In this document: one piece after another, positions 363 through 33,476 of the stretch
How the letters are laid out: the number at the start of each line of letters is the position of its first letter
Numbering within the stretch: position 1 is the stretch's first letter
Notes under the pieces: model-generated
Told to the model about the DNA's origin: nothing
What the model saw: only the letters and a program-made list of their open reading frames with translations
Database searches by the model: none
Program-made: the position numbers and the translations under genes
From: Sporichthyaceae bacterium
Lineage (GTDB): Bacteria; Actinomycetota; Actinomycetes; Sporichthyales; Sporichthyaceae
Assembly (NCBI GenBank): GCA_035644015.1
Contig: DASQPJ010000281.1
Location: 1 to 39,680, forward strand
Reading direction: 5' to 3'
DNA length: 39,680 nt

Positions 363-2189
363 TCAGCCTTGCGGGCCCCGGCTGCGCGCGAGGCGGTCGA
401 CCACGTCCACCGTGACGTCGATCTCCTCGTGGGTGTTGTAGAACGCCAACGAGGGCCGCACCGTCGTCTCCACACCGAGGCGGCGCAGAATCGGTTGGGC
501 GCAGTGGTGCCCGGTGCGTACCGCGATGCCCTCGCGGTCGAGTTCGCGGCCCACCTCTTCGGTGCTGAACCCTTCGAGCACGAACGACACGACGCTGGCC
601 TTCTCCGCCGCCGTCCCGACCAGGCGCAACCCGGGGATCTCCCGCAGGCCGGCGGTGAGGTGCTCGACCAGGGCGTGCTCGTAGGCCGCGATGTTCGCCA
701 TGCCGAGGCGCTCGACGTAGTCCAGCGCGGTGGCCAGGCCGATCGCGTCGGCGATGTTCCCGGTGCCGGCCTCGAAGCGTCCCGGCGGCGGTTGATAGAG
801 CGCGCGTTCCAGGGTCACGTCGGTGATCATGTTGCCGCCGCCCTGCCACGGCGGCATGTCGGCGAGGGCCTGCCTGGTGCCGTACACCGCACCAATGCCG
901 GTGGGGCCGAAGACCTTGTGGCCGGAGAATACGAAGAAGTCCGCGCCCATCGCACTCACGTCGACGGGGGTGTGCGGGACGGACTGGGCGCCGTCGATGA
1001 CCGCGATGGCACCGGCCCGGTGCGCGAGCTCCACGATCTCCTCGACGGGGGTGACCGTGCCGAGCGCGTTGGAGACCTGGGTGACCGCGACGATCTTCGT
1101 GCGATCGGAGAGCAGGTCCGCGTAGTCCTCCATCAGCAACTCGCCCGCGTCATTCACCGGGATGACCTTGATGATCGCGCCGGTCGCCTTGGCCAGCATC
1201 TGCCACGGCACGATGTTCGCGTGATGCTCCAAGTGGGAGATCACGATCTCGTCGCCCTCGCGCACGTGGCGCCCGCCCCAGGCCTTCGCGATCAGGTTGA
1301 TGCCCTCGGTGGTGCCCCGGACGAAGACGATCTCCTCGGCGGAGCCGGCCCCGAGGAAACGCGCCACGGTGTCCCGGGCGTTCTCGAAGGCCTCGGTGGC
1401 CCGGGCGGCCAGGGTGTGCGCGGCGCGGTGGATGTTGGAGTTCTCGTGGGCGTAGAAGTAGGACAGCCGGTCGATGACGGCTTGCGGCTTCTGCGTGGTG
1501 GCGGCGTTGTCGAACCAGATCAGCGGCTTGCCGTTGACGATCTCGGACAGAATCGGGAAGTCCCGACGCACCGCGTTGACGTCGAAGGCCGGATGCGGGT
1601 CGTCGGGGAGGTCGGCCAGTTCCGGGATCTCCACCGGCCGGTCCACGGCGAACGGACCGCCCGCCCGGAACGCACTCTCGTCGAGGAAGTAGAAACCCGA
1701 CGAGGTGGGCTCTAGCGACAGCGGCGCGAAATCAAGTGACGCGGTGTCAACTGCCGGCACATCCAGCACCGGCAGCTCGTACGGCGACCGCCCGGGGCCT
1801 GCCGCGGACGCGCCCGGGTTGAGGCCCGGCGGGCTGCCGAGGAAGTAGAACGGACCGGCGGTTGGGTCCAGATCCGGGCCGGGTGACGGTAGGTCAGGGA
1901 CGCCCGGTGCCATGTCGGGGACAAACGGCATGGCGCTGCCGGCCGCGGAAGCGCCGCTGGTGGCACCCAGGCTGGTCGGCGGTGGCCCGGTCGGCGGGGC
2001 CGGTGGGGTGGTGATGCCCGGACCGTCCGCCGCCGGTAGGCCTTGCGGTAGCGGCCAACCGCCGCCCGGCTGCTGCGCCCCGCCGGGGAGCGCGGCAAAG
2101 AACTCCCCGGCCAGGCGATTCAGCGTCGCTTCGTCCGGCAGCGGGAACGGCGTGTCCGGAACCTCAGCGGTAGGTGGGGGCGTAGTCAT
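363..2189 (-). CDS. cysteine desulfurase (SufS/CsdA-like, class V aminotransferase) with a ~200-aa disordered N-terminal extension; predicted encapsulin cargo
   Basis: ORF track 363..2231. I prefer the ATG at 2189 (MTTPPPTAEV), which overlaps the upstream shell gene by 26 nt. The catalytic part starts near FDVNAVRRDFPILS...LIWFDNAATTQKP. It has the PLP-lysine motif SGHKVFGPTGIG and the catalytic-Cys motif RTGHHCAQP. The first ~200 aa are Pro/Gly/Ala-rich with no fold-like pattern. Confidence 0.9.
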   Translation of the reverse strand: MTTPPPTAEVPDTPFPLPDEATLNRLAGEFFAALPGGAQQPGGGWPLPQGLPAADGPGITTPPAPPTGPPPTSLGATSGASAAGSAMPFVPDMAPGVPDLPSPGPDLDPTAGPFYFLGSPPGLNPGASAAGPGRSPYELPVLDVPAVDTASLDFAPLSLEPTSSGFYFLDESAFRAGGPFAVDRPVEIPELADLPDDPHPAFDVNAVRRDFPILSEIVNGKPLIWFDNAATTQKPQAVIDRLSYFYAHENSNIHRAAHTLAARATEAFENARDTVARFLGAGSAEEIVFVRGTTEGINLIAKAWGGRHVREGDEIVISHLEHHANIVPWQMLAKATGAIIKVIPVNDAGELLMEDYADLLSDRTKIVAVTQVSNALGTVTPVEEIVELAHRAGAIAVIDGAQSVPHTPVDVSAMGADFFVFSGHKVFGPTGIGAVYGTRQALADMPPWQGGGNMITDVTLERALYQPPPGRFEAGTGNIADAIGLATALDYVERLGMANIAAYEHALVEHLTAGLREIPGLRLVGTAAEKASVVSFVLEGFSTEEVGRELDREGIAVRTGHHCAQPILRRLGVETTVRPSLAFYNTHEEIDVTVDVVDRLARSRGPQG

Positions 2190-3093
2190 GGAACTTTTCC
2201 ACCTCGACGTCGTCGAGCACGGCCAGCGCATCCGGGGTCAGCACCACCAGCGAGCAGTACAGCGACACCAGGTACGACGCGATGGCGCTGCGGTCGATCC
2301 CCATGAAGCGCACCGACAGCCCGGGGCCTTGCTCGCCGGCCAGGCCGGGCTGGAACAGCCCGATGACGCCCTGGCGCGCCTCCCCCACCCGGATCAGCAG
2401 GACCTTCGTCTTCCCGCCGACCAACGGCACCTTGTCCGACGGGACGATCGGAATCCCGCGCCAGGTGAGGAACTGCGAGCCGAACATGCTGATCGTGGGC
2501 GGCGGCACACCGCGCCGGGTGCATTCCCGGCCGAACGCGGCGACGGCCGCCGGGTGGGTCAGGAAGAACGCAGGCTGCTTCCAGACCAGCCGGAGCAGGC
2601 TGTCCAGGTCGTCCGGGGTCGGCGGTCCGGCTACGGTCGGGATGCGCTGGTCGGGGTGGGTGTTGGCGAGCAACCCATAGTCCCCGCTGTTGATCAGCTC
2701 GCCCTCTTGATGCTCCTTGATGGTCTCGATGGTGAGCCGGAGCTGCTGGGCGATCTGGTTGTGCGGGCTGGAGTACAGGTCGGAGATCCGGGTGTGCACA
2801 TCCAGGATCGTCTGCACGGCCTTGAGCCGGTACTCCCGCGGGTCACGGTCATAGTCGACGAACGTATTCGGCAGCGGCGCCTCGTCGTAGTTGCTGCACT
2901 GCACCTCCACCGACTCCGGGTGGATCACCTGGTTCAGCCGGTAGATGCCGGCCTCGACCGGAACCCAGGACAACAGGTGCGTCAACCACCGCGGGGTGAT
3001 CGTCGACATCTGCGGAACGGATTTGGTGGCGTTCGCCAGGGTCCTCGCGGCATCGTCCCCAAGAGAAACGGCCGCTGGTGACGTGGTGGTCAC
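2164..3093 (-). CDS. Family 2A encapsulin nanocompartment shell protein (HK97-fold, no cNMP-binding domain)
   Basis: 309 aa with a GTG start at 3093, preceded by AGGAG 7 nt upstream. From memory, the sequence closely resembles the SrpI-type Family 2 encapsulin, for example ANATKSVPQMSTITPRWLTHLLSWVPVEAGIYRLNQV, VDYDRDPREY, DVHTRISDLYSSPHNQI, AFGRECTRRGVPPPT, GKTKVLLIRVGEARQGVIGL, LSVRFMGI and YLVSLYCSL. The length fits subfamily 2A. It lies directly upstream of, and overlapping, a desulfurase with a disordered N-terminus. Confidence 0.82.
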   Translation of the reverse strand: MTTTSPAAVSLGDDAARTLANATKSVPQMSTITPRWLTHLLSWVPVEAGIYRLNQVIHPESVEVQCSNYDEAPLPNTFVDYDRDPREYRLKAVQTILDVHTRISDLYSSPHNQIAQQLRLTIETIKEHQEGELINSGDYGLLANTHPDQRIPTVAGPPTPDDLDSLLRLVWKQPAFFLTHPAAVAAFGRECTRRGVPPPTISMFGSQFLTWRGIPIVPSDKVPLVGGKTKVLLIRVGEARQGVIGLFQPGLAGEQGPGLSVRFMGIDRSAIASYLVSLYCSLVVLTPDALAVLDDVEVEKFHDYAPTYR

Positions 3094-3196
3094 AGTCCCA
3101 CTCCTGACCTCGATGGTGCGCCGCTTCCGGCGACGTAGGACACGCTACGAGTGAGGCGGCCGGGGCTCGCAACCGGGACCCGGGGATGATGAGCAG

Positions 3197-4504
3197 GTGC
3201 GAGCCGTCCACGCCCTCACCCATGCGCTGACCATGACCGGCAACATGACCTGGCAGGTGACCTGGTCGTTGATCCTTGGGTTCGCCCTGTCAGCGGTCGT
3301 GCAGTCGCTGATCCGCAAGGACACCATCGTCCGACTGCTGCCCGATGACCGGCCGCGCAGCCTGGTCACCGCGGCGGGGTTGGGGGCGGCCTCGAGCTCG
3401 TGTTCCTACGCCGCCGCGGCGCTGTCCCGCTCGCTGTTCCGCAAGGGCGCCAACTTCACCGCGGCGACCGCGTTCCTGTTCGCCTCCACCAATCTGGTGG
3501 TCGAACTCGGGCTGATCCTGGCCCTGCTCATCGGCTGGCAGTTCACCGTCGCGGAGTTCATCGGCGGCCCGATCATGATCGTGTTCCTGGCGTTGTTGTT
3601 CCGGCGATTCCTGACCAGCCGTCTGGTATCCGCGGCCCGGGAACAGGCCGAGCTCGGCCGCGCCGGGTCGATGGAGGGTCACGCCGCGATGGACATGAGC
3701 GTGGCGGGAACCGGGAGTTTCTGGTCGCGGCTGGCCAGCCCGGCCGGGTTCACCTCGATCAGCCACAACTTCGTCATGGAGTGGGCCGCGATCCTGCGCG
3801 ACCTGGTCGGTGGGCTGTTCATCGCCGGCGCCGCCGGGGCCTGGATCCCGGACAGCTTCTGGCAGCACCTGTTCCTCGCCGATCACCCCACGTTGGCGAA
3901 GCTCTGGGGGCCGATCATCGGCCCGCTGGTGGCCGTCGCGACGTTCGTCTGTTCCATCGGCAACGTGCCGCTCGCAGCGGTGCTGTGGAACGGCGGGATC
4001 AGCTTCGGCGGGGTGATCAGCTTCATCTTCGCCGACCTGATCATCATCCCGTTGCTGCTCATCTACGCGAAGTACTACGGCCGGCGCATGGCCTGGTTCA
4101 TGTTCGGCACCTTCTACCTGACCATGGCCGTGGCCGGGTACGCGATCGAGCTGCTGTTCAACCCGATCGGACTCATCCCGGACGGTCCACGGCACGCCTC
4201 GGAGGGGGACGACGGAATTCGGTGGAATTACACCTCCGTACTCAACGTTGTGTTCCTGTTGCTCGCCGCCGTGCTGGTGTGGCGCTTCCTCACCACCGGC
4301 GGGCGGGCGATGCTCGCGATGATGGGCGGCAGCCCGGGAGACATGGACCACTCCCACGCCGAACACCACATGGCGGGGGCGGACCCGGGAAATGCTGCGA
4401 TGATGGAAGCCCATGGACTGGCCCTGCATTCGGGACCGGCCACAACCGAGCAGGGAGAAAACATTGTCGGTGAAGATGAGGGCGGTCAAGGTCGCCCGGA
4501 ATAA
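3197..4504 (+). CDS. predicted permease (PF03773 / ArsP-YraQ-like) with a C-terminal His/Met-rich tail
   Basis: Polytopic membrane protein with two internally related halves that carry conserved Cys motifs (GLGAASSSCSYAAAAL and ATFVCSIGNVPLAAVLWNGG). The tail is DMDHSHAEHHMAGADPGNAAMMEAHG. The start is uncertain: GTG 3197, or ATG 3233 or 3245. It is divergent from the encapsulin operon. Confidence 0.75.
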   Translation: MRAVHALTHALTMTGNMTWQVTWSLILGFALSAVVQSLIRKDTIVRLLPDDRPRSLVTAAGLGAASSSCSYAAAALSRSLFRKGANFTAATAFLFASTNLVVELGLILALLIGWQFTVAEFIGGPIMIVFLALLFRRFLTSRLVSAAREQAELGRAGSMEGHAAMDMSVAGTGSFWSRLASPAGFTSISHNFVMEWAAILRDLVGGLFIAGAAGAWIPDSFWQHLFLADHPTLAKLWGPIIGPLVAVATFVCSIGNVPLAAVLWNGGISFGGVISFIFADLIIIPLLLIYAKYYGRRMAWFMFGTFYLTMAVAGYAIELLFNPIGLIPDGPRHASEGDDGIRWNYTSVLNVVFLLLAAVLVWRFLTTGGRAMLAMMGGSPGDMDHSHAEHHMAGADPGNAAMMEAHGLALHSGPATTEQGENIVGEDEGGQGRPE

Positions 4505-4658
4505 GGACTCGAACAAGCCGGTGCGGACGCCGCCGTTCGACGCCAGCACGATCAAGCCGCACAAGCACGGCACCGGGTTCAGCAGCTGCGCCCCCTGCAA
4601 CGCTGCGGGCCTGGCCAGCACCTGCGCGCACGTCGAGGACTGGGTCAAGGAAGCCTGA
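4470..4658 (+). CDS. hypothetical small basic Cys-containing protein (~60-62 aa), candidate unannotated gene
   Basis: This is the distal part of track ORF 4413..4658. GGGAGA at 4453-4458 precedes GTG 4470 and ATG 4476. Translation: (VK)MRAVKVARNKDSNKPVRTPPFDASTIKPHKHGTGFSSCAPCNAAGLASTCAHVEDWVKEA. Third-codon positions are almost all G/C, and all Lys codons are AAG. It overlaps the permease 3' end by ~30 nt and is followed by a GC-rich hairpin. I recognise no family. Confidence 0.4.
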   Translation: MKMRAVKVARNKDSNKPVRTPPFDASTIKPHKHGTGFSSCAPCNAAGLASTCAHVEDWVKEA

Positions 4659-4762: not shown

Positions 4763-5629
4763 GTGACCGCCGGGCCGAGGAGACGCCGCGCTGACCCGCC
4801 CGTGGCTCCGCGCCCGCTGGACCGCGGCTCGGACGAACCGTTGTGGGCCCAACTGCGCGCCGAGCTGCTCCGCCGGCTCGAGGCCGGCGAGTTCGGCGAA
4901 CGCCTCCCCGGCGAGCACGCCATCGCCGCGCAGTACGACGTCAGCCGGTACACGGTCCGTGACGCGGTGGGCAAGCTGCGGGCCGAGGGCATCCTCAGCG
5001 GGCAGCGCGGCCAGCAGGCCCGGCTGCCCGTCGCGCCGGCGCAGCCCACCACGCACCTCTACACGCTCTCCGCGGTGCTGCAACGCACCGGCGCCGAGCC
5101 CTCCGCCGTGGTGCGGGAGTTGGGCATCCGCACCGATCCCGCCATCGCCGAACGGCTGGGCCTCGACCGGGAGGCGCCGTTGGTGCACCTGGAGCGGGTG
5201 CGACTGGCCGACGGTGCACCGTTCGCGCTGGAACGGGTCTGGCTGCCGGCGGTGCTGGCCGCCCCCCTGCTCGAGGTCGACTTCAGCCGAGCCTCCCTCT
5301 ACGACGAACTGCGCCGCATCGGCGTGCACCCGTGGATGGGCTCCGAGCGCCTCTCCGCGATCGTCCCCACCGCGGCAGAGGCGGCCCTGCTGGGCATGGG
5401 ACGGCGCCGCGAAGCGGCCCTGCTCATCGAGCGGCAGGCGTGCGCGGGCGACCGGTTCTGCGAGGTCCGGCACACGCTGGTGCGTGGTGACCGGGTCGAG
5501 GCGTATGCCGAGTTCACCGACCGCCCCGGCTACGAACTGCTGCTCGACGGCGAGGAGCCCACCGGCGCGGTGAGCCGGCCGCCGGCCCGGCCGCTACGCC
5601 TCGCGGCCCGTCGCGCCGACTCGAGCTGA
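4763..5629 (+). CDS. GntR-family transcriptional regulator, HutC/UTRA subfamily
   Basis: N-terminal winged-HTH region: PLWAQLRAELLRRLEAGEFGERLPGEHAIAAQYDVSRYTVRDAVGKLRAEGIL. C-terminal UTRA-like effector domain: LVHLERVRLADGAPFALERVWLPA. GTG start at 4763; the true start could be further downstream. Confidence 0.85.
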   Translation: MTAGPRRRRADPPVAPRPLDRGSDEPLWAQLRAELLRRLEAGEFGERLPGEHAIAAQYDVSRYTVRDAVGKLRAEGILSGQRGQQARLPVAPAQPTTHLYTLSAVLQRTGAEPSAVVRELGIRTDPAIAERLGLDREAPLVHLERVRLADGAPFALERVWLPAVLAAPLLEVDFSRASLYDELRRIGVHPWMGSERLSAIVPTAAEAALLGMGRRREAALLIERQACAGDRFCEVRHTLVRGDRVEAYAEFTDRPGYELLLDGEEPTGAVSRPPARPLRLAARRADSS

Positions 5630-6826
5630 TCAGCGGGACATCTGCTGGACCGGACGCGCTTGAAACTGCGCGATGGTGCCCGGGGTTTGCACGTCGAGCC
5701 AGTCGGTGAGCTCCTTGAAGGACACGCACCGGGTGCCCGGGTTGTGGCAGGTCTCCAGCAGGAACTTCGACAGCGCGTCCAGGTAGATGCCGTCGTTGAA
5801 CCGGTCGAAGTGATCGCCGAGGATCAACGGCGCGCGGTTGCCGTTGCGCAGCGCCTGGTAGGCGTGGCGGTAGGTGTCGAGCGTCTGTCGTTCCAATCCG
5901 TCCTGCAGCGCGCCACCGAGGTCGCGGCCGCCGCTCTGGGCGAGGAAGAAGTTGTAGTCCATGGACAGCACGCTGGAGTTGGTGCCGGCCAGGCGGAGTT
6001 CCTGCATCGGGATGTCCCACATGCCGTTGGCGAACTTGTGCGGCCAGCGCAGGTCTCCGTCGCCGCTGCTGTCGTAGCGGAAACCGTGGGCGGCGAGCAC
6101 GGGCAGGAAGGCGTCGCGGCGGCCCTCCAGGCAGGGCGTGCGCTCGCCCACGATGGCCTTGTCCCCGAAGGGCATGGGCGCCGCGTCCGGGGCGTCGGCG
6201 TTGGTCCGCCAGTTGTCCAGGAACGAGTAGAACTGGTCGAGTTCATTCGACCACTCGGCCGTGTTCCAGGCGGCACCACCGACCTGGCCGCAGAAGTGGC
6301 CGTTGTAGTGCGTCCCGATCTCGTTGCCGGCCATATACGCCCGGCGGACGAATTCCATGCGCTTCTGAATGTCCGCTTCATTGCTGAAGTTGATGTCCGC
6401 ACTGCCGACCGGGTGTCCCGGCGGGTGGTAGAGCGTGCGCTTGTCCCGGGGTACCAGGTAGGGACCCGACAGGAAGAAGGTCATCCCGGCGTCGGCGCGT
6501 CGGGAGACGTCCAGCCAGCGCTGCCATTCGTCCAGGCTGCCCGCGCCGTCGAAGGAGGTGACGATGAACTGGGGCGGGGTCTCGCCGGGCTTGAGTGGCA
6601 CGGGCGCGAGGTCGGAGTCGGGTGTCGGGGTGGCGGTGGTGGATGGGGTGGCGGATGGGGTGGCGGTGGTGGTGCTCGCGGGCTCCTGGATCTGCGGCGC
6701 GGATTCGGCGGCCATGCCGCCGGTACACGCCGCGAGCACGCTGACCGCGGCCACCGCGAGCGTGGCTCTGCTGAGCACGTCGCGGGCACGGAGGCCTCGG
6801 ATCCTCACGGCCGCAACGGTAAGCAC
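5630..6826 (-). CDS. secreted lipoprotein, polysaccharide deacetylase (NodB/CE4)-like
   Basis: Signal peptide with lipobox VLAAC, then a Thr/Pro/Ser linker (TTTATPSATPSTTATPTPDS). The following domain carries FIVTSFDGAG and GNEIGTHYNGH motifs reminiscent of NodB motifs 1 and 2. The functional call is tentative. GTG start at 6826; internal GTG alternatives exist. Confidence 0.6.
   Translation of the reverse strand: MLTVAAVRIRGLRARDVLSRATLAVAAVSVLAACTGGMAAESAPQIQEPASTTTATPSATPSTTATPTPDSDLAPVPLKPGETPPQFIVTSFDGAGSLDEWQRWLDVSRRADAGMTFFLSGPYLVPRDKRTLYHPPGHPVGSADINFSNEADIQKRMEFVRRAYMAGNEIGTHYNGHFCGQVGGAAWNTAEWSNELDQFYSFLDNWRTNADAPDAAPMPFGDKAIVGERTPCLEGRRDAFLPVLAAHGFRYDSSGDGDLRWPHKFANGMWDIPMQELRLAGTNSSVLSMDYNFFLAQSGGRDLGGALQDGLERQTLDTYRHAYQALRNGNRAPLILGDHFDRFNDGIYLDALSKFLLETCHNPGTRCVSFKELTDWLDVQTPGTIAQFQARPVQQMSR
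6621..6676. repeat. short imperfect tandem repeat (GGGGTGGCGG core x3) encoding the Thr/Pro-rich linker of the lipoprotein
   Basis: The GGGGTGGCGG core occurs at 6627, 6645 and 6657, with units of 18, 12 and 18 nt. It lies in-frame within the coding sequence. Confidence 0.7.
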
Positions 6827-8032: not shown

Positions 8033-9199
8033 TCAAGCCACGGCCTCGATGTACTGCGCGGCCGCAGCGGCGCCCCCCGCGGCCTGGAACGCGTCCCCGA
8101 CATGCTGGGCGGCCTTGCGGTGCCGGGGCTCGTCCAACACCAGGTCGAGGGCCTCGCCCAATCGCTCGGGGGTGATGCCGCCGAAGGGCACCCGGATGCC
8201 CACGTCGGCGGCAACCACCTGGTTGGCGACGACGGGTTGGTCGTCCCGCATCGGCGCCACCACCAACGGCACGCCGTACCAGAGCGCCTGGCAAACGGTG
8301 TTGTGGCCCGCCTGGCAAACCACCGCCGAGCACCAGGGCAGCAGTTCCAGCTGCGGGACAACCGGCAGCACGAGGACCGAGGAGCTCGACGCGGCATTCT
8401 CGAGGAGGTCCGCCGGGTCGACGATGATCCCCTGCAGTCGATCCCGCCGATCCCGCAGCGCCGCGTGGGCGGCGGCCAGGAAGACGGCCCCGGCATCGGC
8501 GTTGGCCGCGCCGAGGCTGACCAGCACCAACTTGCGATCATCGAGCCACTCCCAGAGGAAGTCCCCGAACGCGGGACGAGGGTGGATCGACGGGCCCACG
8601 AAGCAGATGGGACCGGACGGTGCCGACACCGGGCCGGTCAACTCCGGGGTGGTGAACGCGATGATCAAATGCGGAGAGAACCGCGGGTCCTTTCCGCCGA
8701 GGGGATCACCCGTACGGGACCGCAGATCGTCGAAGCGTTCGTTCAACCAGGCGTCCACCAACGGCATACCGTCCAGTGCCCCGGGGAATTCCGCCGACGT
8801 TGTCGCGGAGGTGATCCACGGGATGCCGAGCCGCTCGGCGATCAGCGCGCCGGCCACGGCCTGCTGGTCGACCACCATGACGTCCGGACGGAATTCCTCG
8901 ACCGCCGCGAGCACGTCCGGCGCCATCACCTCGCCGAGTGGGATCAGGAAGTCCTCCCAGAGGAACTGCAACGCGGACAGGCCGCACGGCGGCGCCGGGC
9001 TTTCGAACGGCTCGCCCTGCCTGCCGCGGGGCAGCGCGCACGGGTAGATCTGCGCGGTACGGCCGGCCAGCGCCCCGACGATCTCCGGCATGCCCGCCCA
9101 GGCGACCTGGTGGCCGCGCGCGGTCAGCTCGGCGGCCACCCCGACGGCGGGGTCGACGTGGCCGACCAGCGGTGGCACGACGAACAGGTATCGGGTCAT
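8033..9199 (-). CDS. GT1-family glycosyltransferase (MGT/UDP-glycosyltransferase-like), paralogue 1
   Basis: N-terminus MTRYLFVVPPLVGHVDPAVGVAAELTARGH. C-terminal nucleotide-sugar motif VVCQAGHNTVCQALWYGVPLVVAPMRDDQP. ATGA overlap with the upstream ATPase gene. Confidence 0.9.
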   Translation of the reverse strand: MTRYLFVVPPLVGHVDPAVGVAAELTARGHQVAWAGMPEIVGALAGRTAQIYPCALPRGRQGEPFESPAPPCGLSALQFLWEDFLIPLGEVMAPDVLAAVEEFRPDVMVVDQQAVAGALIAERLGIPWITSATTSAEFPGALDGMPLVDAWLNERFDDLRSRTGDPLGGKDPRFSPHLIIAFTTPELTGPVSAPSGPICFVGPSIHPRPAFGDFLWEWLDDRKLVLVSLGAANADAGAVFLAAAHAALRDRRDRLQGIIVDPADLLENAASSSSVLVLPVVPQLELLPWCSAVVCQAGHNTVCQALWYGVPLVVAPMRDDQPVVANQVVAADVGIRVPFGGITPERLGEALDLVLDEPRHRKAAQHVGDAFQAAGGAAAAAQYIEAVA

Positions 9200-10113
9200 G
9201 CCGCACCCACGTCCACTGATCGGAACTCCACCGAATCCCGGGTCAGTCCGAGAAACGCCTCCTCCAGCGACATCCGATCAACGCGCAGTTCGTTGATCCG
9301 AATGCGGTGCTCCCAGGCCAGATCACCGATTTGCTCGGCGCTGTGCCCACGCACCGTCAGCACACCCGGGGCGGGCGCGCTGATGTCCACCCGGGGCCCC
9401 GCCAGCACCATGGTCAGGCGAACCGCCTCCGGGGTGCACACGTGCACCTGCGCCGGCGCGGCGGTGGCGATGAACTCCTCGACGGTGGTGTCCGCGACCA
9501 GCCGACCGCGGCCGATCACGATCAACCGCTGCGCGGTCAGCGCCATCTCCGAGAGCAGGTGGGACGAGACGAAAACGGTCCGGCCCTGCGCGGCCAGGTG
9601 CCGCAGCAGGCCACGGACCCAGCGGATGCCCTCGGGGTCCAGGCCGTTCACCGGCTCGTCGAGCATCACCGTCGCCGGGTCGCCCAACAGCGCGGCGGCG
9701 ATGCCGAGCCGCTGACCCATGCCCAGCGAAAACTCCCCGGCGCGGCGGCGCGTCACCCCGGCCAACCCCACCAAGTCCAGGACCTCCCCGACGCGACGTC
9801 GACCGATGCCGTTGGTCTGGGCGAGGGCGAGCAAGTGGTGGTAGGCCGGACGCGCGGCGTGTACCGCGCGGGCGTCCAGCAACACGCCCAGTTCGGCCAT
9901 CGGCACGGCGGCACTGCGGTAAGGCTTTCCGTTGACCCGCACCGACCCCGAGGTCGGCCGGTCCAGGGCCGCGATCATCCGCATCGTGGTCGACTTCCCG
10001 GCCCCGTTCGGCCCCAGGAACCCGGTCACCACGCCGGGCGCAACCGTGAACGACAGGTCATCGACCGCCGTCGCGTCCCCATAGCGTTTGGTCAGCCCAC
10101 TGACCTCGATCAC
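9196..10113 (-). CDS. ABC transporter ATP-binding protein (DrrA-like, ABC-2 subfamily)
   Basis: Walker A GPNGAGKST, signature FSLGMGQRL, Walker B VMLDEP. GTG start at 10113 overlaps the upstream stop (GTGA). Confidence 0.93.
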   Translation of the reverse strand: MIEVSGLTKRYGDATAVDDLSFTVAPGVVTGFLGPNGAGKSTTMRMIAALDRPTSGSVRVNGKPYRSAAVPMAELGVLLDARAVHAARPAYHHLLALAQTNGIGRRRVGEVLDLVGLAGVTRRRAGEFSLGMGQRLGIAAALLGDPATVMLDEPVNGLDPEGIRWVRGLLRHLAAQGRTVFVSSHLLSEMALTAQRLIVIGRGRLVADTTVEEFIATAAPAQVHVCTPEAVRLTMVLAGPRVDISAPAPGVLTVRGHSAEQIGDLAWEHRIRINELRVDRMSLEEAFLGLTRDSVEFRSVDVGAA

Positions 10114-11981
10114 GCCGGCACTTCCAGCGGGGCACCGGCCGCCGCCCGCTCGTTCGCGAGCGTCAGCAGTTCCTCGAGTGCCCGGTGCATACCGTCGATG
10201 AGCTCACGGGGCTGCGGTACTGCGGCCTCGACGCACAGGATGGTGAGGAAGAGTCGGTCCCCGTGACTGGCGACCACGAAGTTGACCATCGTGCCGCCCT
10301 CGTCGGCCGGCCCGATGAAGTGGGCGGTCTCGACCGGCGATCCGGCCAGGGCACCCATCGGCCGCTGCTCACGGACGTGGGACACGATGAGGTTCCACTT
10401 GCGCTCGCTCCGCTGGCGATCGTGGCGCATCCGATGCAGTTTGTAGTGCTGCAGCGAACGGATTACCCACGGCGGTATCTGGTCCAGCCAGTCGTCGAGC
10501 AGGTGCGGGCCCCGGACGACCAACACACGTTTCGCCCTAGCGGTGACGGCACCGATCGTGATCAATCGCTGCCACGGGTCGGTGAGGTCGGTGCCCAGCG
10601 TGGTCTTCAGGAACCCGACCCGGTTACCGAACGTACGACGTGGCGCATTCGCCCGATCCAGGCCCACCGGCACGTTCGCCACCAGCGACGGCGTGGGCAG
10701 GCTGTCCCGCGCGGACAGATACGCCCGCATCGCACCGGCGACGAGCACCAGCACGACGTCGTTGATCGTGACCCCGGCCGCGTCCTTGATCCGCGTCACG
10801 TCGGCCATGTCCAGCGTGGAACTGGCGAGGGTCTTTCGTCCGGTGAACGGTCGGTAGGGCCGGCACATCGCGGTGTCTCTATTGCTCGGCAGGACGACCG
10901 CCGAGGCTGCCATGGCTGCCTTCGCCGCGGCCGAACTGGTTCGCGTGGCGCGCACCAGGGCGGGCAGCCGGTGCGCTGCCCTGGCCTGGTCCGCCAGCCC
11001 CTCGACAAGCAGCCGCCGCGCGCTCGGTACGGGCTGCGACTCCGCTGTCTGCGTCGGCTCGGACCCGACATCGCTCACCAGGATCTGCAGTGTATTCAGC
11101 AGTGCGAACCCGTCAGTGACACAGTGATGGACCGTCAGCACGACGGTCTGCCGACCATCCGCCAGACCGTGGACCAGGGTCAACCGCCACAGCGGCCGCC
11201 GTCGGTCCAGGCCACGCCCGGCCTGCTCGGCGCAGAAGGCGTCGAGCACGTCCGCCGTGCCCGGGGCAGCGATGGTGTGCTCCTCCACGTGATGGGTGAT
11301 GTCGAAGTCGGCATCGTCGACGTACACCGGATGACCGAGCCCGAACGGAACGCCCACCACCCGCCACCGGAAGGCAGGCAGGGCACCCAGCCGCTCCGCG
11401 ACGTGGTGGCGCAACTGCGCCACGTCGAGCAGGGTCGACGATCCGTCCGCGGCGACCCGCGGACGCAACCGCAGCACCGCAAGACAATTCGCCGTCGTGC
11501 CGGAGTACTCGCCGGAATAGAAGGCGGAGTCGAGCCCCGACAATCGTCGGGCTGCGCGCCGGCGAGCCACGACTGCCTCGGCCCTGCTGTCCGTTTCGTG
11601 CCGGCCGGTCATCAGCACAGGGACCAGGATGCACAGCAAGAACACCGCGCCCAGCGCGAGGTGTCCCGATCGGTGCTCGCCACGTTCGACAGCCGCTACA
11701 GCGGCGGTCGTCCACATGGCGGCGTTGGCCGCACCGGCAAATCGGCCGCTCACCCCGAGCCGGCGCCACCGACCGCCGCGAGGCGCGGTGAACGCCGCGA
11801 GCGTAGCCACGGCCAGGCCGGCTCCGATGGCCCACCGAGAGACCCACCAGGACGGTCGATCGAGTTGCAGCCACACCAGGGTGCCCAGCAGCCCGACGAG
11901 CGCACCGACGACCAGTGCGATCTTCTGCTCACGCGTGGGCGGCGGGTTGAACCGCCGGAACGTTCGGCTCAGCGTTTTCAC
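10110..11981 (-). CDS. WS/DGAT-family acyltransferase (HHxxxDG) fused to an N-terminal ~130-aa four-TM domain
   Basis: Track ORF 10110..12497. I start it at GTG 11981, which overlaps the GT stop (GTGA). Residues 1-130 contain about four hydrophobic segments. From LSGLDSAFY onward the sequence is WS/DGAT-like, with the active-site motif HHCVTDG encoded at 11109-11129. Confidence 0.8.
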   Translation of the reverse strand: MKTLSRTFRRFNPPPTREQKIALVVGALVGLLGTLVWLQLDRPSWWVSRWAIGAGLAVATLAAFTAPRGGRWRRLGVSGRFAGAANAAMWTTAAVAAVERGEHRSGHLALGAVFLLCILVPVLMTGRHETDSRAEAVVARRRAARRLSGLDSAFYSGEYSGTTANCLAVLRLRPRVAADGSSTLLDVAQLRHHVAERLGALPAFRWRVVGVPFGLGHPVYVDDADFDITHHVEEHTIAAPGTADVLDAFCAEQAGRGLDRRRPLWRLTLVHGLADGRQTVVLTVHHCVTDGFALLNTLQILVSDVGSEPTQTAESQPVPSARRLLVEGLADQARAAHRLPALVRATRTSSAAAKAAMAASAVVLPSNRDTAMCRPYRPFTGRKTLASSTLDMADVTRIKDAAGVTINDVVLVLVAGAMRAYLSARDSLPTPSLVANVPVGLDRANAPRRTFGNRVGFLKTTLGTDLTDPWQRLITIGAVTARAKRVLVVRGPHLLDDWLDQIPPWVIRSLQHYKLHRMRHDRQRSERKWNLIVSHVREQRPMGALAGSPVETAHFIGPADEGGTMVNFVVASHGDRLFLTILCVEAAVPQPRELIDGMHRALEELLTLANERAAAGAPLEVPA

Positions 11982-13147
11982 GCCAACACCTCCATGTGAT
12001 CGGCGGCGGTGGCGGCGCCACCCGCGGCCCGAAAGGAGTCCCCCAGGTACTCGGCACACTTGCGGTACATCGGGTCGTCGAGGACCGCGTCGATGGCCTC
12101 GCCCAGTCGCTGGGCGGTGATCCGCCCGAATCGCACCCGCATGCCGGCGCCCGCGGTGACGACCTGACCGGCCACCGTCGGCTGGTCGTCCACGATCGGC
12201 GCCACCACCAGGGGAACGCCGTGCCAGAGTGTCTCGCAGACGGTGTTGTGCCCGGCGTGACAGACCACCGCCGAGCAGTGCGGAAGCAACTGCACCTGCG
12301 GCACCGCCGCCAGCACCAGGACGTCGTCGGTGACCGGGGCGCCCGCGAGGAGGTTGCCGGGGTCGACGATGACACCTTGCAGGCGGTCGGCGCGGTCGGT
12401 GAGGGCGGCGTGAGCGGCCGTCAGAAACGCCGAACCCGCGTCGGTGTTGACCGTACCCAAGCTGACCAGCACGAGCCTGCGCGTGGCGTCGAGCCATTCG
12501 ACGGGGAACTGCCCGTAGCCCGGCCGGGCCGCGATCGACGGACCCACGAAGCGGAGCGGTCCGCCCGGGGATACCGCACAGGCGGAGAGTTCCGGGGTGG
12601 TGAACGCGATGATCAGGTGCGGGGAGAACCGCAGGTCGGCGCCACCCGGCGGGACACCCATACGGTCATGCAACGCGCGCAGCAGGTCGCGCACCCAGGC
12701 CTCGACCAGCGGCATGCCATCGCGGGCCGCGACGAATTCCGCGGACGTCGTCGCGGACGTCACCCAGGCAATGCCCAACTGCTCGGCCACCAGCGCGCCC
12801 GCCACCGTCTGTTGGTCGACGATCAGGACGTCCGGACGGAACTGCTCCGCAGCCGTGCGCACACCCGGCACCATCGCCTCGCCGAGTGGGATCAAGAACT
12901 GCTCCCACAGGAACTGCAACGCGGCCGGGCCGCGGAGGCCCGGAGGGCGACCGACCGGTGCACCGGAGGCATCCCGGGGCACCGCGCAGTCGAAGACCTC
13001 GGCGCTCGGACCTGCGAGGCGGGCGATGATCTCGGACTGCCCGGCCCAGGCCACCCGGTGGCCACGCGCCGTGAGTTCGGCGGCCACGCCGACCAGCGGG
13101 TTGATGTGCCCGACCAGCGGGGGCACCACGATCAGGAACCGGCTCAT
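11978..13147 (-). CDS. GT1-family glycosyltransferase, paralogue 2
   Basis: Track ORF 11978..13576. The real start is ATG 13147 (MSRFLIVVPPLVGHINPLVGVAAELTARGH), which overlaps the upstream stop (ATGA). It is collinear with paralogue 1 over its whole length (roughly two thirds identical by eye) and shares the motif VVCHAGHNTVCETLWHGVPLVVAPIVDDQP. Confidence 0.9.
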   Translation of the reverse strand: MSRFLIVVPPLVGHINPLVGVAAELTARGHRVAWAGQSEIIARLAGPSAEVFDCAVPRDASGAPVGRPPGLRGPAALQFLWEQFLIPLGEAMVPGVRTAAEQFRPDVLIVDQQTVAGALVAEQLGIAWVTSATTSAEFVAARDGMPLVEAWVRDLLRALHDRMGVPPGGADLRFSPHLIIAFTTPELSACAVSPGGPLRFVGPSIAARPGYGQFPVEWLDATRRLVLVSLGTVNTDAGSAFLTAAHAALTDRADRLQGVIVDPGNLLAGAPVTDDVLVLAAVPQVQLLPHCSAVVCHAGHNTVCETLWHGVPLVVAPIVDDQPTVAGQVVTAGAGMRVRFGRITAQRLGEAIDAVLDDPMYRKCAEYLGDSFRAAGGAATAADHMEVLA

Positions 13148-13974
13148 GAGGCGGCCCGCAGTCCGGGAGTGGTCGGCAGCGTGACGGCAACCCCTTGCTC
13201 GGCCAGCCAGTCCAGGATCAGCGCGCTGATCTGTTCGGGGGCCCCGGAGAGCACGAAGTGGTCCTGCTCCGCCACCACGGCGGTGCGACAGTCGGGCAGC
13301 GCGTGCGGCAGCCGATCGGCCAGACCGACCAGGTCGGAATCGGCGGCGTACACGGCGAATACGGGGCAACGAATCTGCCAGAACTCCATGGGATCCAGCA
13401 GCAGCTCGCTGGCCAGGATGTCCCGGGCCAGGGACGTGGTGCGCAGCATGCGGGCCGCCCGCAGCGCCAGGCGACCCATGTGTGAACCGTGCTCCGCGGT
13501 GATCGAGGCGATGGACTCCTCGAGGTTCGGATCTGTTCTGCCGTGATGCAGGCTGGGGGCGAGTTGGATCGCCCAATCCGGCGTGGCCGGCTCCGATTCG
13601 ATCGCGAAGATGCTCGCCACCCGGTCCGGGTGCAGGACGGCCATACCGAACGCGACCATGCCGCCGAAGCAGTTGCCCACGAGGTGCACCGGACCAGCGA
13701 TGCCGAGTTCGTCGAGCAGGGCCGGGAGATCCTCGACGAAACGTTCCAGTTGATAACCCGAATCCGGCCGGGTGGTGCGGCCATGACCACGCTGGTCGTA
13801 CATGACGACATCGAGGCCCGCCTCCGCCAAGGCGGGGGCCACCGTGAAGTAGTAGGTGGCCAACGTGTCGGCCGGGAAACCGTGCACCAGCACCACGGTC
13901 GCCGCCGGCGGCCGATCGGAGGGACCGAGACGCTCCACGTGGAAACGCAACCCGGCGACCTCGTGGAAGGTCAT
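13144..13974 (-). CDS. alpha/beta-fold hydrolase/acyltransferase with a Cys nucleophile (GNCFG)
   Basis: HG oxyanion motif (VLVHGFPAD). The nucleophile elbow VGNCFGG has Cys102 (codon at 13669-13671) where Ser is usual. Candidate acid and His residues (YAADSD, EQDHF) sit near the C-terminus. Confidence 0.85.
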   Translation of the reverse strand: MTFHEVAGLRFHVERLGPSDRPPAATVVLVHGFPADTLATYYFTVAPALAEAGLDVVMYDQRGHGRTTRPDSGYQLERFVEDLPALLDELGIAGPVHLVGNCFGGMVAFGMAVLHPDRVASIFAIESEPATPDWAIQLAPSLHHGRTDPNLEESIASITAEHGSHMGRLALRAARMLRTTSLARDILASELLLDPMEFWQIRCPVFAVYAADSDLVGLADRLPHALPDCRTAVVAEQDHFVLSGAPEQISALILDWLAEQGVAVTLPTTPGLRAAS

Positions 13975-14294
13975 CGACGACTCGCCTGGGTCACGGCCAG
14001 GCCATCGACCACGTGGTAGACGAGCTCCCCCACGGTGAGCGCGATCAATTCGTCCAGGTGCTTACCGGCAACGAACTCGGCGAAATTGACCCGCTCGCCC
14101 CACCGCGCGTTGAGCAGGACAGCGAGCGAGACCATGTCGATGCTCTCGAACTCGAGGTCGTCGTTGAACGACGTGCCCATGGCGATCTCGGCGCTGTGCG
14201 GCCCGATATCGGCAAGCACGTCCGCGAGCATCGCGGCGATCTCGGCGAGCACCTGCTCGGTGGTGGGGTTCACGGTGATGGTGGTCGCAGTCAT
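13971..14294 (-). CDS. discrete acyl/peptidyl carrier protein
   Basis: 107 aa. Four-helix ACP-like pattern with the phosphopantetheine-site motif DDLEFESIDMVSL (Ser51). ATGA overlaps on both sides. Confidence 0.8.
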   Translation of the reverse strand: MTATTITVNPTTEQVLAEIAAMLADVLADIGPHSAEIAMGTSFNDDLEFESIDMVSLAVLLNARWGERVNFAEFVAGKHLDELIALTVGELVYHVVDGLAVTQASRR

Positions 14295-17200
14295 GCTGGG
14301 ACCGTCCTTTCGCGATAATGGCCGGGACTGAGTTCCGGCAGCATGGGTCCGTCGGCGGCGAGGGCCACCACATAGGTGCGCGGTGGCAACCCGGGCCGGT
14401 TGGTGATGCAGCTGATGTCCACTCGGTAGATCAGCGGACTTTCTGAGCCTTCGTCAGTGACAGCCACTGAGATCTGCCGTTCCTCCGCGGCCACCACGGC
14501 GAACTCCCGCGGACGCCCCTGCAGTCCGGTCCCGCGCGCCTTCGCGACGGCCTCCTTGGCGGCCCAGAAGCGGGTGAACCACAACTCGGGTGAGCCCCCC
14601 GTGGCGAGGCAGGCCGCCAAGACCTCGCGTTCCGCGGGGCCGAGCGCGAACTCCACCGTGCCCGGCGGGCGTTCTGACACCTGCTCGATGTCGATGCCCA
14701 CGCCGAAGCCCGCTGCGGGCCGGGCGACCGCGACGGCCGTGTCGGCGCAATGCGCCACGGAGACCTCGAGATCCGGCAGCACCCGACCGTGCATCCCGCT
14801 GACCCGCGGCTTGCCGCTCTCGTCGTTGCCCACGAAAATCTCGGCCGGCCACAGCGGGCCCTCGCCATCGGCCCACAGCAGGTGACGCACCGCGTCCTTC
14901 ACGGCGACGCGCCCCAGCGCCCAACCCCGGCGCCGACGTGGCGGCTGCCGCTCGGCCAACTCCCGTTCGGCCGCGCTCAGATAGCGACGCATGACGATGT
15001 CCCTGGTGGCCAGGTCGTCACAGTGATCGACCATCAGCACCCAGTCGCCGGGCTGCAGCGCGCCGTGCGCGTTGTGCTCCACGCAGCGCTCCACCGCCAG
15101 TGAGGCCGCGTCGGAGTCGAACCGCCGGTCGCGCCAGCCCGACACTTCCGCCCACACCACGTCGCGCCCGCCGGGTCCGGGCACGCACAGCTGCACGTCG
15201 GCGGCCAACGTCGCCTCGGAGCACTCGACGATCCGGATGTGGCAGCTCACCTCCACGCCGGGCATCGGGGCCGGCCCGTGGAACCGGATCGCGCGCATAC
15301 CGATCGGGAACACCAAGGTGCGGTCCACCCCGCGCGCCATGATCCAGCAACCGAGGATCTGCCCGACGTTGTCCAGCAGTGCGCCCGGCGCCGCGGGCGC
15401 GGTGATGACCCCGCGAATATGCGCCGGGCCGATCGCCGACAGAGCACTGACCGCCTGGAAGGCCGGCCCGTGGAACATCCAGCGCCGGGCATACATCTGA
15501 CTGGCGGTCAGCGGTGGCGATTGTTCGGCCGCATCGATCGGCCACGGGTCGGGCTGCGGCGGGTAGGCCACGGCGAGTTCCAGATTGCCCCGGGCGCAGC
15601 TGCCGAAGGTCGCGGCCAGCCGACCGTCCCCGGTCGGCTCGAGGCCGATCTCGACGCTGCTCTCGGGGATCACCGGTACCCATCGCTCGAACCGCAGGTC
15701 GTGCAGCGCCACCACGACCTGACCCGGGTTACTCGCCCGGGCGGCATCGGCCAGGTGCTCGATGATCGTCGTCGCCGGGATGACCGGGAAGCGGTCGGAG
15801 GCGTCGGGCCAACCCGGACGCTGGCTGAAGAAGCAGTGGTCCCGCAGGTACGGCATGGCGTCCAGGGACACCGTCAACGCGCGGTTCGATGGGACCGGGG
15901 GCTCCGGTCGGACCGGTAGCGCAGGCTGCGTCACGCGCGGCGGGATCGCCCGACGGATGACCGCGTCGCGGCCGGCCATGAGCAGCTCGAGCGCGGAGCG
16001 CTCGGCCTCCCCCATCAGCGCCTCGAACTCGGCCACCGCCGGGAAGTGCTCGGCCAGTTCCCGAAGATCCGTCCGGCCGGCCGCCGGCGGACGCGCACCC
16101 ATCCCGGCGCGCAGCGCGGGTAGTTGCTCGGGGTCCAACGAGAGCAACGAGCCGCCCAGATCAAGACGTACCCCGACCGCCCGCGGCCGGACCGCGGGGG
16201 CCAGCGCGGCCAGGTCGACCTCGGCACCGGCGGACCACAGCGCCGTGGCCGCCAGTCGGAGCTGGGCCAGGCCATCGCGTCGCGCGGATCCCGCCGCCGT
16301 GCTCAGGTGGTCCTGCTCGCGCAGGGTGTCGGCGACCAACGCCGTCAACTGGCCGACCCCGACCTGCACGAAGGCCCGGAAGCCTGCGGTGTACATGGCC
16401 GCCAGCATCGGCCGGAAGCGCACCGGCTCCAGCAGATGACGGGTGTGCAGGGTGCGCACGGCCGCGGCATCGGCGGGGAATTCCGCAGCCGTCGTGGCCG
16501 ACCAGACCGGAACGTTCGCCGGGTGGATGTCGAACAAATCGGCACTGCGGCGGATCGAGTCGAGATAGGGCTCCAGCATCGGGGTGTGGAACCCGGACCG
16601 GAACGGCAGAACCTGGCCGAGCACGCCGCGGGCCCGCAGCGCCAGGACGAACGCGTCCACCTCGTCCTCGGGGCCGCACACGATCGTCTGCTGCGGGGCG
16701 TTGTCGTGCGAGAGGACGATCCGGGTCCCGGCCGGGGACGCCGCCAGGGCGGCGAGGTGGTCGAGCACGAGGTCTGCGCCGGCGCCCAGGGCGGCGAAGG
16801 CCAGGCCGGGCACCTGGACCGCGTCGGGGTCGTAGGTGGCCAGGAACTTGTCGATGTCCTCCTGGGAGTAGAGGCCGCCGGCGAGCATGGCGCTCCACTC
16901 ACCGACGCTGTGCCCGGCGACGGCGTCCGGCACGATTCCGACCCGGCGCAGCGCGCTGTCCAATAACCGGCCGACGGTCATCACCCCGACCATGTGCCGG
17001 CCGACGTCGCCGACGACATCAGCCCCGTCGAACAATTGCGGTGAGGGCAACCGGAAATGTGTCGCCACGTCGGACACTTGCGGCGCGAAGGTGTCCTCCA
17101 AGCCGGGGAACAGGAACGCCACGCGGCCGCGGCCCGGGCCGAGCAACTGCTCCGGGGAGAACCAGACCTCGTTGCGGCCGCGCCAGGCCTGGCCGCGTTC

Positions 17201-18865: not shown

Positions 18866-21800
18866 CACCAGCCCGACGCGGTGTAGACCACCGACCGCAG
18901 CGACTCGGGTCCCCAGGCGAGCTCGCGCAGCAGGGCGCCCGTGCCGGCCTCGGCATCGATCAGTCGGATCCCGCGGCGTGCGTAGTCCCGGGCCAGGTCC
19001 TCCGACACCATGCCCCCGTGGATTCCGTGGGGTGCCCACGGGCCCCAGTGCACGGTCAGACACCGGCCCCCGGTACGCCGCGACCAGCGCGCGCCGAGGG
19101 ACTCCAGGGCGTCGTTGGCCGCGGCGTAGTCGACCTGACCACGGTTGCCCAACGCGGCGGCGATGCTGCCGAACAGGACGGTGAACCGCGGGCCATCGGG
19201 CAGCTCGCCCAACGTGTCCAGGAGGGCGCGCGCTCCATCCGCCTTGGTGGCGAATACCCGCGCGAAGGAGCGCGCGTCCTTCTCGGCGAACATCTTGTCC
19301 TCGATGACGCCCGCCGCGAACACCACGCCGTCCAGCCGCCCGTACGTGGCGTGGACTTCCTTGGCCGCCCGGCTCAGCGCCGTCGGATCCGCGGCGTCCA
19401 CCGCGCGGTAGTGCGCCGCCGAACCCAGCGCGGTCAACTCGGTGAGAGTCGCGGTCACCTCCCGCGCAGCCAACAGGGCACCTGCGGCCGCGTCGACCTG
19501 CGCCATGGGGATGCCCTGGCGGGCGAGCACGGCACGCAATTGGGCCCGGTCCCGCGCCACGGCCGTGGCCGGGTCCTCCGGCTCGGTGGGCAACGTGGTG
19601 CGGCCCAGCAACTCCAGCCGGCACCCGGACGTGGCGGCGAGCGTCGCGGCGAAACGGGCGGTGATGCCCCGGGCACCACCGACCAGCAGCACGACGGCGT
19701 CCCGATCCAGGCCCAACGCCGCGGCCTCCGACGCGCCCTCACCGGCCGGTCCGGCGCCGGTATTCGCCAGCACGCCGAGAGCGGATTCCACCAGGGTCGG
19801 AGCGCGGCGGCCCGTGGCGCCCCACAACACCACGGGCTCGCGGCCCCCGGCCAGGAGCTCCTCCACCAACACCCGGCCGACGTTCTCCCCCGTGGCGTCC
19901 TCGATCTCGATCAGCCGTACGAGCATGTCCGGGTATTCACGGGCCAGGCTGCGGATCGCCCCGCGCAGACCGTCGGCGCGCCCCGACTCGGCGCCCGGGA
20001 AGTCCGCGGCCGGCCGGACCGTGAGCAGCAGACGTGGACGAGCGCGCAACGCGGCCTGGAGGGCGGGAACGCAGGTCGGCAGAACATCCGGGCCCTCCTC
20101 ACAGAGCGGGTCGAGCAGCAGCACACCGTCGATCGCACCGTCCGCCGCGCAGGCCTCGTGGGTTGCTTCACGCAGCAGCGCCTCGGCGCCATGCCCGCTC
20201 AACCGGGCGGCGACCTCAGCCGCGACGACACCCCCGCCCAGTACCAGGAACCGCGTCCCGGCAAGGGTTTCGGCCCCGGCACCTCCGGCGGGCAGCAGCG
20301 TCTCGACGTGCACCAGGCGGACCGGCGGGTGCCCGGTGATGGCCTGTTGCGCAACCGGCGCCGGTTCGGCGGACGGGCCGAGCAGTCGAGCGGCGAGCAA
20401 ATCGCTGAGCGCCAGGGCGGTGCGGGCCCGGGACAGCTCCTCGAGCTCGGCATCGCTGAGCGAATCCAGACCCGCCTGCCCACCGGTGGCGAGACGCTGG
20501 GCCAGCAGGCCCACGATCTCGGTGCGTTTGATGGAGTCGATCGACAGATCGCTCTCCAGGTCGAGGTCGGGCTCGATCATCTCGGGGGGATAGCCGGTGC
20601 GTTCCGCCACGATCTCGATGACGATGCGCAGCACCCCGTCGTGGTCGAGCGTCTCGACGGTCGGCGACTCGAGGGTCGGGGCGATGGCCGACGCCGCGAC
20701 GGAGGCCGGCGACCTGACGGGTGTGGGCGCCGCCAGTGCCGGGCCGGGCAGCGGAGCCGGGGAGGGCCGCGGGACGAACGATCCGTCAGAACCTAGATGG
20801 GCCAACAGAACGTCACGCTGCGCAGCCAACATCTCCCGGCCCGCGCGCAGGAAGTCCGCGATCAACGCATCCGTCGCGGCTTGGAACGAGTACCCATCAG
20901 CCGGCGTTGCCACCAACGGCTCTTTGATCGTGTGGGTCGGCGCCAGCGCACCGGGCAAGTAGTTACCGTCGGCGGTACGGACGAGGTGCCCGTCCACGGT
21001 CCAACCGGGGCAACGCGGGGCCGGCGCCGCAATGGCGTCGAGGGCATCGCGTCCACGCAACAGCCGTCCCGGGTCGACCTCGACGCCGCATACGGCCAGT
21101 GCGGCCAGCGCATCGAGAAAACCGGCGATGCCATCCCGCCGGTCCTCCAGTGCAATGGCCCGGTGGGGTCGGTCGCCGAGCACGGCCGATACGCAGCGGG
21201 TGAGTACCGCACCGGGCCCCGCCTCGACGAACACCCGGGCGCCCGCCGCATACATGGCCTCGATCTGGTCCACGAATCGCACCGGCGACACGAGCTGCGC
21301 CGCGAGCTCGGTCCGAATGTGGGCGGGGTCCGCCGGGTAAACCGCGGCGGTGCGGTTGGCGAACACGGGCAGTTCCGGGGAGCGGATCTCCCGGGTGGCC
21401 AGCACCTGCGCGAACAAGGAGCCCGCGTCGGCCACGACGGGGCTGTGGAACGCGCACGCGACCGGGATCCGCTTGACCGAGAAGCCGGCCGCGGCCAGCT
21501 CCCCGATCGCCCGCTCGATCTCGTCCGTGCCACCGGAGATCACCGTTTGCCGTGGGGCATTGAGATTGGCCGCGACCACGTGCCCGCACAGCCCGGCGGC
21601 GGCCAGCACGGCCTCGACCTCGGTGGCACCGGCGATCACCGCGGCCATGGCGCCGGGGTCGGCGCCCTCGCCGATCGCCTCGAGGATCACCCGGCCGCGT
21701 TCGTGGCTGAGCAACGGGAGGTGCTCGGCCGCCAGCACGCCGGCCGCACACAGCGCGACCAGTTCGCCGTAGCTGTGCCCGCCGACCAGATCGGGATACA

Positions 21801-33429: not shown

Positions 33430-33476
33430 CGGGGCCCCGCTCGTTTGCGCCCGCGGAGCCGGGGAACTCCCGGGGT

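Follow-up and report, generated by a model that had tools for sequence, protein, structure and literature searches.

What is encoded by the two overlapping minus-strand genes that lie near the beginning of a 39,680-nucleotide stretch of DNA from a Sporichthyaceae bacterium (contig DASQPJ010000281.1, assembly GCA_035644015.1; hereafter the window), and does the permease gene that diverges from them take part in the same system? An earlier note had proposed a Family 2A encapsulin shell with a cysteine desulfurase (CD) cargo, and its two open reading frames (ORFs), 2164-3093 and 363-2231, were confirmed on the minus strand. The locus is very probably a two-gene Family 2A desulfurase encapsulin operon of a high-GC actinobacterium, for which a sulfur-storing role is assigned by homology; no sequence feature contradicts this assignment. 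The features of the operon are as follows.

2164-3093, minus strand: Family 2A encapsulin shell gene, GTG start, 309 amino acids (aa), from family profiles and solved homologues
3101-3105, minus strand: Shine-Dalgarno-like AGGAG, 7 nt 5' of the shell start codon (GTG, 3093), as seen in the sequence
363-2189, minus strand: cargo cysteine desulfurase gene, 608 aa from the conserved ATG at 2189, from NF041166, TIGR01979, PF00266 and 8KG1
2164-2189, minus strand: overlap of the shell and cargo genes, 26 nt in different frames, from sequence reading
363-1574, minus strand: type II (SufS-like) pyridoxal phosphate (PLP)-dependent cysteine desulfurase domain, ∼400 C-terminal residues, from motifs and structure alignment
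1575-2189, minus strand: putative N-terminal cargo-loading domain, approximately residues 1-205, low complexity, from composition and the lack of a Pfam domain
2097-2123, minus strand: loading motif 1, LNRLAGEFF, cargo residues 23-31, matching the published LARLANEFFS
1839-1850, minus strand: loading motif 2, copy 1, (AGP)FYFL(G), residues 114-117, matching the published AASPYYFLDG
1683-1694, minus strand: loading motif 2, copy 2, (SSG)FYFL(DE), residues 166-169, matching the same published motif

A profile search with Family 2 encapsulin shell models, the check that the earlier note had put forward, gave matches over cut-off with both NF041162 and PF19307. The NCBIfam equivalog NF041162 (encap_f2a) scored 511.6 bits against a cut-off of 380, with residues 11-304 aligned to positions 1-295 of the 295 in the model, and PF19307 (Type 2A encapsulin shell protein SrpI-like) scored 337 bits against a cut-off of 22.8. 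Chance similarity is excluded by the E-values, which were 5.3e-154 for NF041162, 6.8e-101 for PF19307 and, for the cargo model NF041166, 4.8e-252. The best match among solved structures was 8T6R, a 1.78-Å cryo-EM structure to which the shell protein is 72% identical over 305 aa (E=3.2e-156), followed by the mycobacterial Mmp1 shells 9KSL (69% identity) and 8WOL/8WON, and then SrpI (6X8M), all at E<=1e-140. Given the 72% identity to 8T6R, the HK97 phage-capsid fold follows by homology, and a T=1 architecture would be expected on the same ground.

No match to the cyclic nucleotide monophosphate (cNMP)-binding domain PF00027 was obtained at E<=0.01 in the 309-aa protein, and alignment to the Family 2B model reached, in its best stretch, only positions 211-449 of 450, which make up its C-terminal half; the shell is therefore of the 2A and not the 2B type. 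Family 2B structures (9BJE, 9BHU and 9BIX) share a homologous HK97 core with the window shell (E of about 1e-83 to 1e-92). By contrast with the 309-aa shell and desulfurase cargo found here, however, Family 2B proteins are ∼470 aa in length, carry the cNMP-binding insertion and are paired with terpene cyclase or polyprenyl transferase cargo. On these profile and structure matches, the protein is identified as an HK97-fold protomer of the SrpI/Mmp1 family, Family 2A, as the earlier note had recognized from its SrpI-like motifs and missing cNMP insertion.

The product of the second gene was examined in the same manner. NF041166 (f2_encap_cargo1, the Family 2A cargo cysteine desulfurase model) scored 838.6 bits against a cut-off of 800. 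The protein also scored 548 bits on the SufS subfamily model TIGR01979 and 487.8 bits on PF00266 (class-V aminotransferase); it fell under the cut-off of the SufS equivalog (488 versus 661 bits) and under that of CsdA. Its best match in the PDB was 8KG1, the crystal structure of the Mycobacterium smegmatis encapsulin-associated CD (Enc-CD), with E=1.7e-201 over the catalytic domain, and SufS/CsdB structures, among them 1JF9 and 6MR2, align with this domain over its full length. The active-site motifs are intact and comprise HHAN at residues 322-325, the PLP lysine K425 in SGHK and the catalytic cysteine C563 in GHHCA.

Residues 1-205 are of a different character. Here, Pro, Gly, Ala and Ser together make up 53% of residues, as against 31% in the catalytic domain, and no Pfam domain was matched; among the family models, only NF041166 enters this region, from residue 176. 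From this composition and the absence of a Pfam domain, the region is predicted to be disordered. It contains counterparts of both motifs reported for SrpI-associated desulfurases, LARLANEFFS and AASPYYFLDG (PMC8049743), the first of which is kept as LPDEATLNRLAGEFF in actinobacterial and proteobacterial relatives. In M. smegmatis, cargo loading needs the N-terminal disordered region, and multiple motifs act in this process, single ones being insufficient (PMC11659603). The downstream gene is thus assigned, from its profile matches and motifs, to the encapsulin-cargo class as a SufS-type desulfurase with a loading domain. The passing NF041166 score, the motifs, the catalytic residues and the gene order together bear out the earlier description of an overlapping SufS-like desulfurase with a long disordered N-terminal domain.

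The longest ORF downstream of the shell gene, 363-2231, encodes 622 aa from the first ATG. Given that the N-terminus conserved across relatives, MT(T/I)..PT, corresponds to MTTPPPT..., which begins at the ATG at 2189, with GAGGTGGA upstream of that ATG, the true start of the cargo gene is probably 2189 and the first ATG at 2231 is not the real start. In actinobacterial and proteobacterial relatives alike, the start of the cargo gene lies within the 3' end of the shell gene, with an overlap of 26-29 nt, and this recurrence suggests translational coupling of the two genes. Third-position GC is 0.90 in both ORFs, as expected of real genes in a 70% GC genome. The GC content of the operon (0.69-0.70) equals that of its surroundings, and that of the window is ∼70% throughout.

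To place the pair among its relatives, a scan of one genome per species was used, which gave 521 relatives; the best 80, with shell identities of 72-82%, were analyzed with 10-kb flanks. These come from Pseudonocardia, Nocardia, Streptomyces, Kribbella, Actinospica and many Betaproteobacteria, the nearest genomes being those of Pseudonocardia and Nocardia. The desulfurase gene directly follows the shell gene in 78 of the 78 loci with enough downstream sequence, with a catalytic-domain identity of 69-76%. The gene upstream of the shell differs among the actinobacterial relatives and encodes a LysR regulator in three cases and otherwise a TetR regulator, a ROK protein or a methyltransferase. Proteobacterial relatives (L055 and L073) bear a hexapeptide serine O-acetyltransferase gene in this position, and L055 also has a PALP cysteine-synthase-like gene. 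Upstream genes such as those for LysR and the hexapeptide transferase fit the published Family 2A neighborhoods, in which four operon types are described and PF00132, PF00581 and LysR are enriched.

The two-gene Enc-CD arrangement is among the operon types described (PMC10836720). Catalogued desulfurase encapsulin operons number 1,281-1,462, of which 193 are in Actinobacteria, and genes for rhodanese and serine O-acetyltransferase occur in about half of the operons of this kind. Given that Pfam scans of the main ORFs across the 39.7-kb window revealed neither rhodanese (PF00581) nor serine O-acetyltransferase (PF00132), the locus is classed by its gene content as the minimal two-gene Enc-CD type and not as the four-gene type consisting of rhodanese, acetyltransferase, Enc and CD (R-AT-Enc-CD). 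The lack of these two genes limits what the window can say about remobilization of any stored sulfur, and induction by sulfur starvation has been shown only in the cyanobacterium Synechococcus elongatus and in Acinetobacter baumannii (PMC10836720).

Comparison with the systems already solved shows how close the pair stands to them. The Enc and CD of A. baumannii 118362 (J517_0527 and J517_0528; 8T6R, PMC10836720), the source of the 72% identical shell, are encoded in the same order, and the A. baumannii CD likewise carries at its N-terminus a long, disordered loading domain that is rich in Pro, Gly and Ser and contains short conserved motifs. The A. baumannii shell is a T=1, 24-nm particle that stores elemental sulfur; the same would be expected of the window system. 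The two loci differ in gene number: rhodanese and serine O-acetyltransferase genes accompany Enc and CD in the four-gene A. baumannii operon, whereas the window has only Enc and CD, and upstream of them a divergent permease gene that is unrelated. M. smegmatis Mmp1 and its Enc-CD (8WOL/8WON and 8KG1; PMC11659603) belong to the same phylum as the present host and match the shell at E=1.1e-142 and the cargo at the E-value already given for 8KG1, the N-terminal domain being ∼205 residues in the window cargo as against an intrinsically disordered region of ∼155 residues in M. smegmatis. The “major membrane protein I” of Mycobacterium leprae and Mycobacterium avium is grouped with this M. smegmatis encapsulin. 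The founding Family 2A member is SrpI of S. elongatus PCC 7942 with its desulfurase CyD (6X8M/6X8T; PMC8049743), which matches the window shell at E=1.3e-140; both N-terminal motifs of the S. elongatus system are those with counterparts in the window cargo, and SrpI is induced by sulfur starvation (PMC10836720). The Family 2A system is thus already known, with structures available from three organisms, one of them an actinobacterium, and with dedicated annotation models. The remark in the earlier note that such loci are commonly annotated only as a hypothetical protein plus an aminotransferase is therefore outdated, because NF041162 and NF041166 now name both proteins.

By analogy with S. elongatus SrpI/CyD, A. 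baumannii Enc-CD and M. smegmatis Mmp1/Enc-CD (PMC10836720, PMC8049743, PMC11659603), the following sequence of events can be proposed. Sixty shell protomers would assemble into an icosahedral T=1 shell of ∼24 nm, as in 8T6R, 6X8M and 8WOL, and the desulfurase would be packaged through its disordered N-terminal domain, several short motifs of which would engage hydrophobic patches on the lumenal face near the threefold axes. L-Cysteine would enter by way of a ∼6-Å fivefold pore and be converted to L-alanine and an enzyme persulfide. Because the lumen would hold no acceptor protein, sulfane sulfur would build up there as elemental sulfur, out of reach of cytosolic reductants of the size of glutathione; in an actinobacterial host, we infer that mycothiol would take the place of glutathione as the excluded thiol. 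Encapsulation may in addition stabilize the desulfurase and guard it against oxidation. Because the lumenal sulfur would be shielded from reductants, the compartment would act as a sulfur store and buffer, one that is probably induced by sulfur limitation.

The genes that flank the operon are listed below.

3197-4504, plus strand: ArsP_1/YraQ-family permease (PF03773, 235 bits), divergent from the shell gene
4479-4658, plus strand: small ORF of ∼59-60 aa directly after the permease gene, with a CAPC motif and a third Cys, third-position GC 0.89
4763-5629, plus strand: GntR/UTRA regulator
5630-6826, minus strand: predicted lipoprotein of 398 aa with lipobox LAAC and a Thr/Pro-rich linker; sub-threshold polysaccharide deacetylase match (E=0.048)
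178-1, minus strand: N-terminus of a predicted lipoprotein (MRLPTRT...LIAGLAAC, Thr/Ala-rich linker, HSGMDMNAAV), extending beyond the window end

The immediate neighbors are as the earlier note had described them, namely a divergent permease with Cys motifs and a His-rich tail, and a lipobox-containing ORF downstream of the cargo gene. The permease has the single-Cys motifs SSCSY and VCSIGNVP and a His/Met-rich C-terminal tail, DHSHAEHHM...MMEAH; this tail had no Pfam match and is not kept in homologues. Identities as SaoE, the literature on which concerns organometallic selenoprotein systems, and as SO_0444 (Cu/Zn efflux) were tried and rejected, the scores being 56 and 58 bits against cut-offs of 325 and 300, respectively. 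The lipoprotein fragment that starts at 178, 184 nt past the cargo stop codon, does not have the length needed for classification. A gene is also called at the position of the small Cys-containing ORF on a 4.5-kb ENA metagenome contig (L081); no Pfam match to this ORF was found, nor any homologue in 163 related loci. The intergenic region of the divergent genes showed a single 8-nt inverted repeat (3164-3171/3198-3205) and yielded no sigma-70-like promoter, and a search for a terminator between the cargo gene and the lipoprotein gene that follows it was likewise negative.

This arrangement raises the alternative that the encapsulin operon and the divergent permease form a single module for sequestration or detoxification of a thiophilic metal or metalloid and not a sulfur store, a module that might also take in the small Cys-containing ORF, the GntR regulator and the downstream lipoprotein. 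Such a module would account for the divergent placement of the shell and permease genes only about 100-140 bp apart, and for the Cys motifs and His/Met-rich tail of the permease. Annotated neighborhoods of three permease homologues of 78-84% identity are also in keeping with a link to metals, since two of the three adjoin an HMA copper chaperone gene, in one case with a P-type ATPase and a CsoR-type repressor as well, the third adjoining a thioredoxin-like gene. Moreover, the permease-encapsulin arrangement is repeated on L081. This last contig, however, encodes an identical shell protein and so represents the same lineage and not independent conservation; it is the only other place where the adjacency was found. 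Searches by tblastn revealed the permease, the GntR regulator or a homologue of either lipoprotein within 10 kb in none of the 80 encapsulin loci. In the reverse test, none of the 83 loci with permeases of 62-83% identity bore a Family 2A shell or cargo, where the sequence upstream of the permease reaches at least 1.5 kb in 53 loci and at least 3 kb in 33. PF03773 is likewise absent from the supplement text of the published Family 2A neighborhood enrichment table, and the intergenic region has no conspicuous operator-like palindrome that the divergent genes might share. Given that the conservation test failed in both directions, the adjacency is most likely incidental, a single metal module is very unlikely, and the suggestion in the earlier note that the nature of the sequestered substance may be read from the permease and lipoprotein does not hold. 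A narrower version, in which this lineage has recruited the encapsulin beside the ArsP/YraQ permease under a shared divergent control region, with sulfane sulfur buffering or precipitating a thiophilic metal, draws its sole support from the adjacency itself and the copper-type neighbors of the two permease homologues and is considered similarly doubtful. A copper or thiophilic-metal role for the permease clade is plausible in its own right, independent of encapsulins.

Two further explanations would each detach one gene of the pair from a cargo-loaded compartment. Given that PF19307 and the HK97 fold are common to phage capsids, and that published surveys needed to filter out a phage background (PMC10836720), the 309-aa protein might be the capsid of a defective prophage and not a cellular encapsulin. 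The Family 2A equivalog model was passed by a wide margin, however, and a dedicated cargo gene follows both here and in every relative that extends far enough. In addition, the window ORFs scanned with Pfam, a few of which gave no match, include no terminase, portal, protease or tail genes, and the GC content of the operon does not depart from that of its surroundings; a prophage origin is therefore scarcely credible. Alternatively, the desulfurase might be a free SufS that serves housekeeping Fe-S cluster assembly and lies beside the shell gene by coincidence, as its 548 bits on TIGR01979 could suggest. Against this, the protein falls short of the SufS equivalog cut-off and exceeds that of the cargo model, it has a ∼205-aa loading domain with conserved motifs, and no sufBCD, sufE or sufU was detected nearby in the Pfam scans of the window. 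The shell-CD synteny and overlapping start are, moreover, kept across phyla, and a housekeeping role is judged extremely improbable. The desulfurase encapsulin operon remains the preferred interpretation of the locus.

Several other features were observed elsewhere in the window. A lipid cluster resembling polyunsaturated fatty acid (PUFA) synthase and polyketide synthase (PKS) systems occupies 14291-25743 together with 8033-13974, both on the minus strand. Its first protein, of 2292 aa, contains an NMO-type enoyl reductase together with KS, AT, ACP and KR domains, and its second, of about 1520-1777 aa, contains KS, an AT-like domain, DH and PPTase. Because of an overlap between the listed ORFs (18865-19624), the second gene probably begins near 18862. 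Farther downstream, the same strand encodes an alpha/beta hydrolase, a pair of glycosyltransferases of the EryCIII/UDPGT type, a WS/DGAT acyltransferase of 795 aa with an N-terminal extension of ∼318 aa that has no Pfam match, and an ABC transporter (ATPase and ABC-2 permease). Taken together, these genes look like a cluster for a glycolipid or wax-ester secondary lipid.

The GC content falls to 0.63 at 26001-27000, as against ∼0.70 elsewhere, where the PKS cluster ends and the gene for a three-domain multicopper oxidase (26539-28035, plus strand) follows. Genes related to metals and redox chemistry are scattered over 29311-39665 and include those for a Rieske/DUF2231 membrane protein (29311-30165), an Nramp transporter (31415-32644), the FdhD sulfurtransferase (35639-36682, minus strand) and a partial molybdopterin enzyme (38739-39665, minus strand). 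An Orn/Lys/Arg decarboxylase (33294-35036) and a LuxR-type response regulator (34942-35661) are encoded in the same region. No known encapsulin partner is present among the metal and redox genes of 29311-39665.

The negative result obtained with the permease is useful, in that it guards against over-reading a chance adjacency. The practical value of the present analysis is one of annotation: 2164-3093 can be named a Family 2A encapsulin shell protein and the overlapping gene an encapsulin cargo cysteine desulfurase, with its start placed at 2189. In terms of biology, the locus adds little that is new and provides one more actinobacterial example of a catalogued compartment family.

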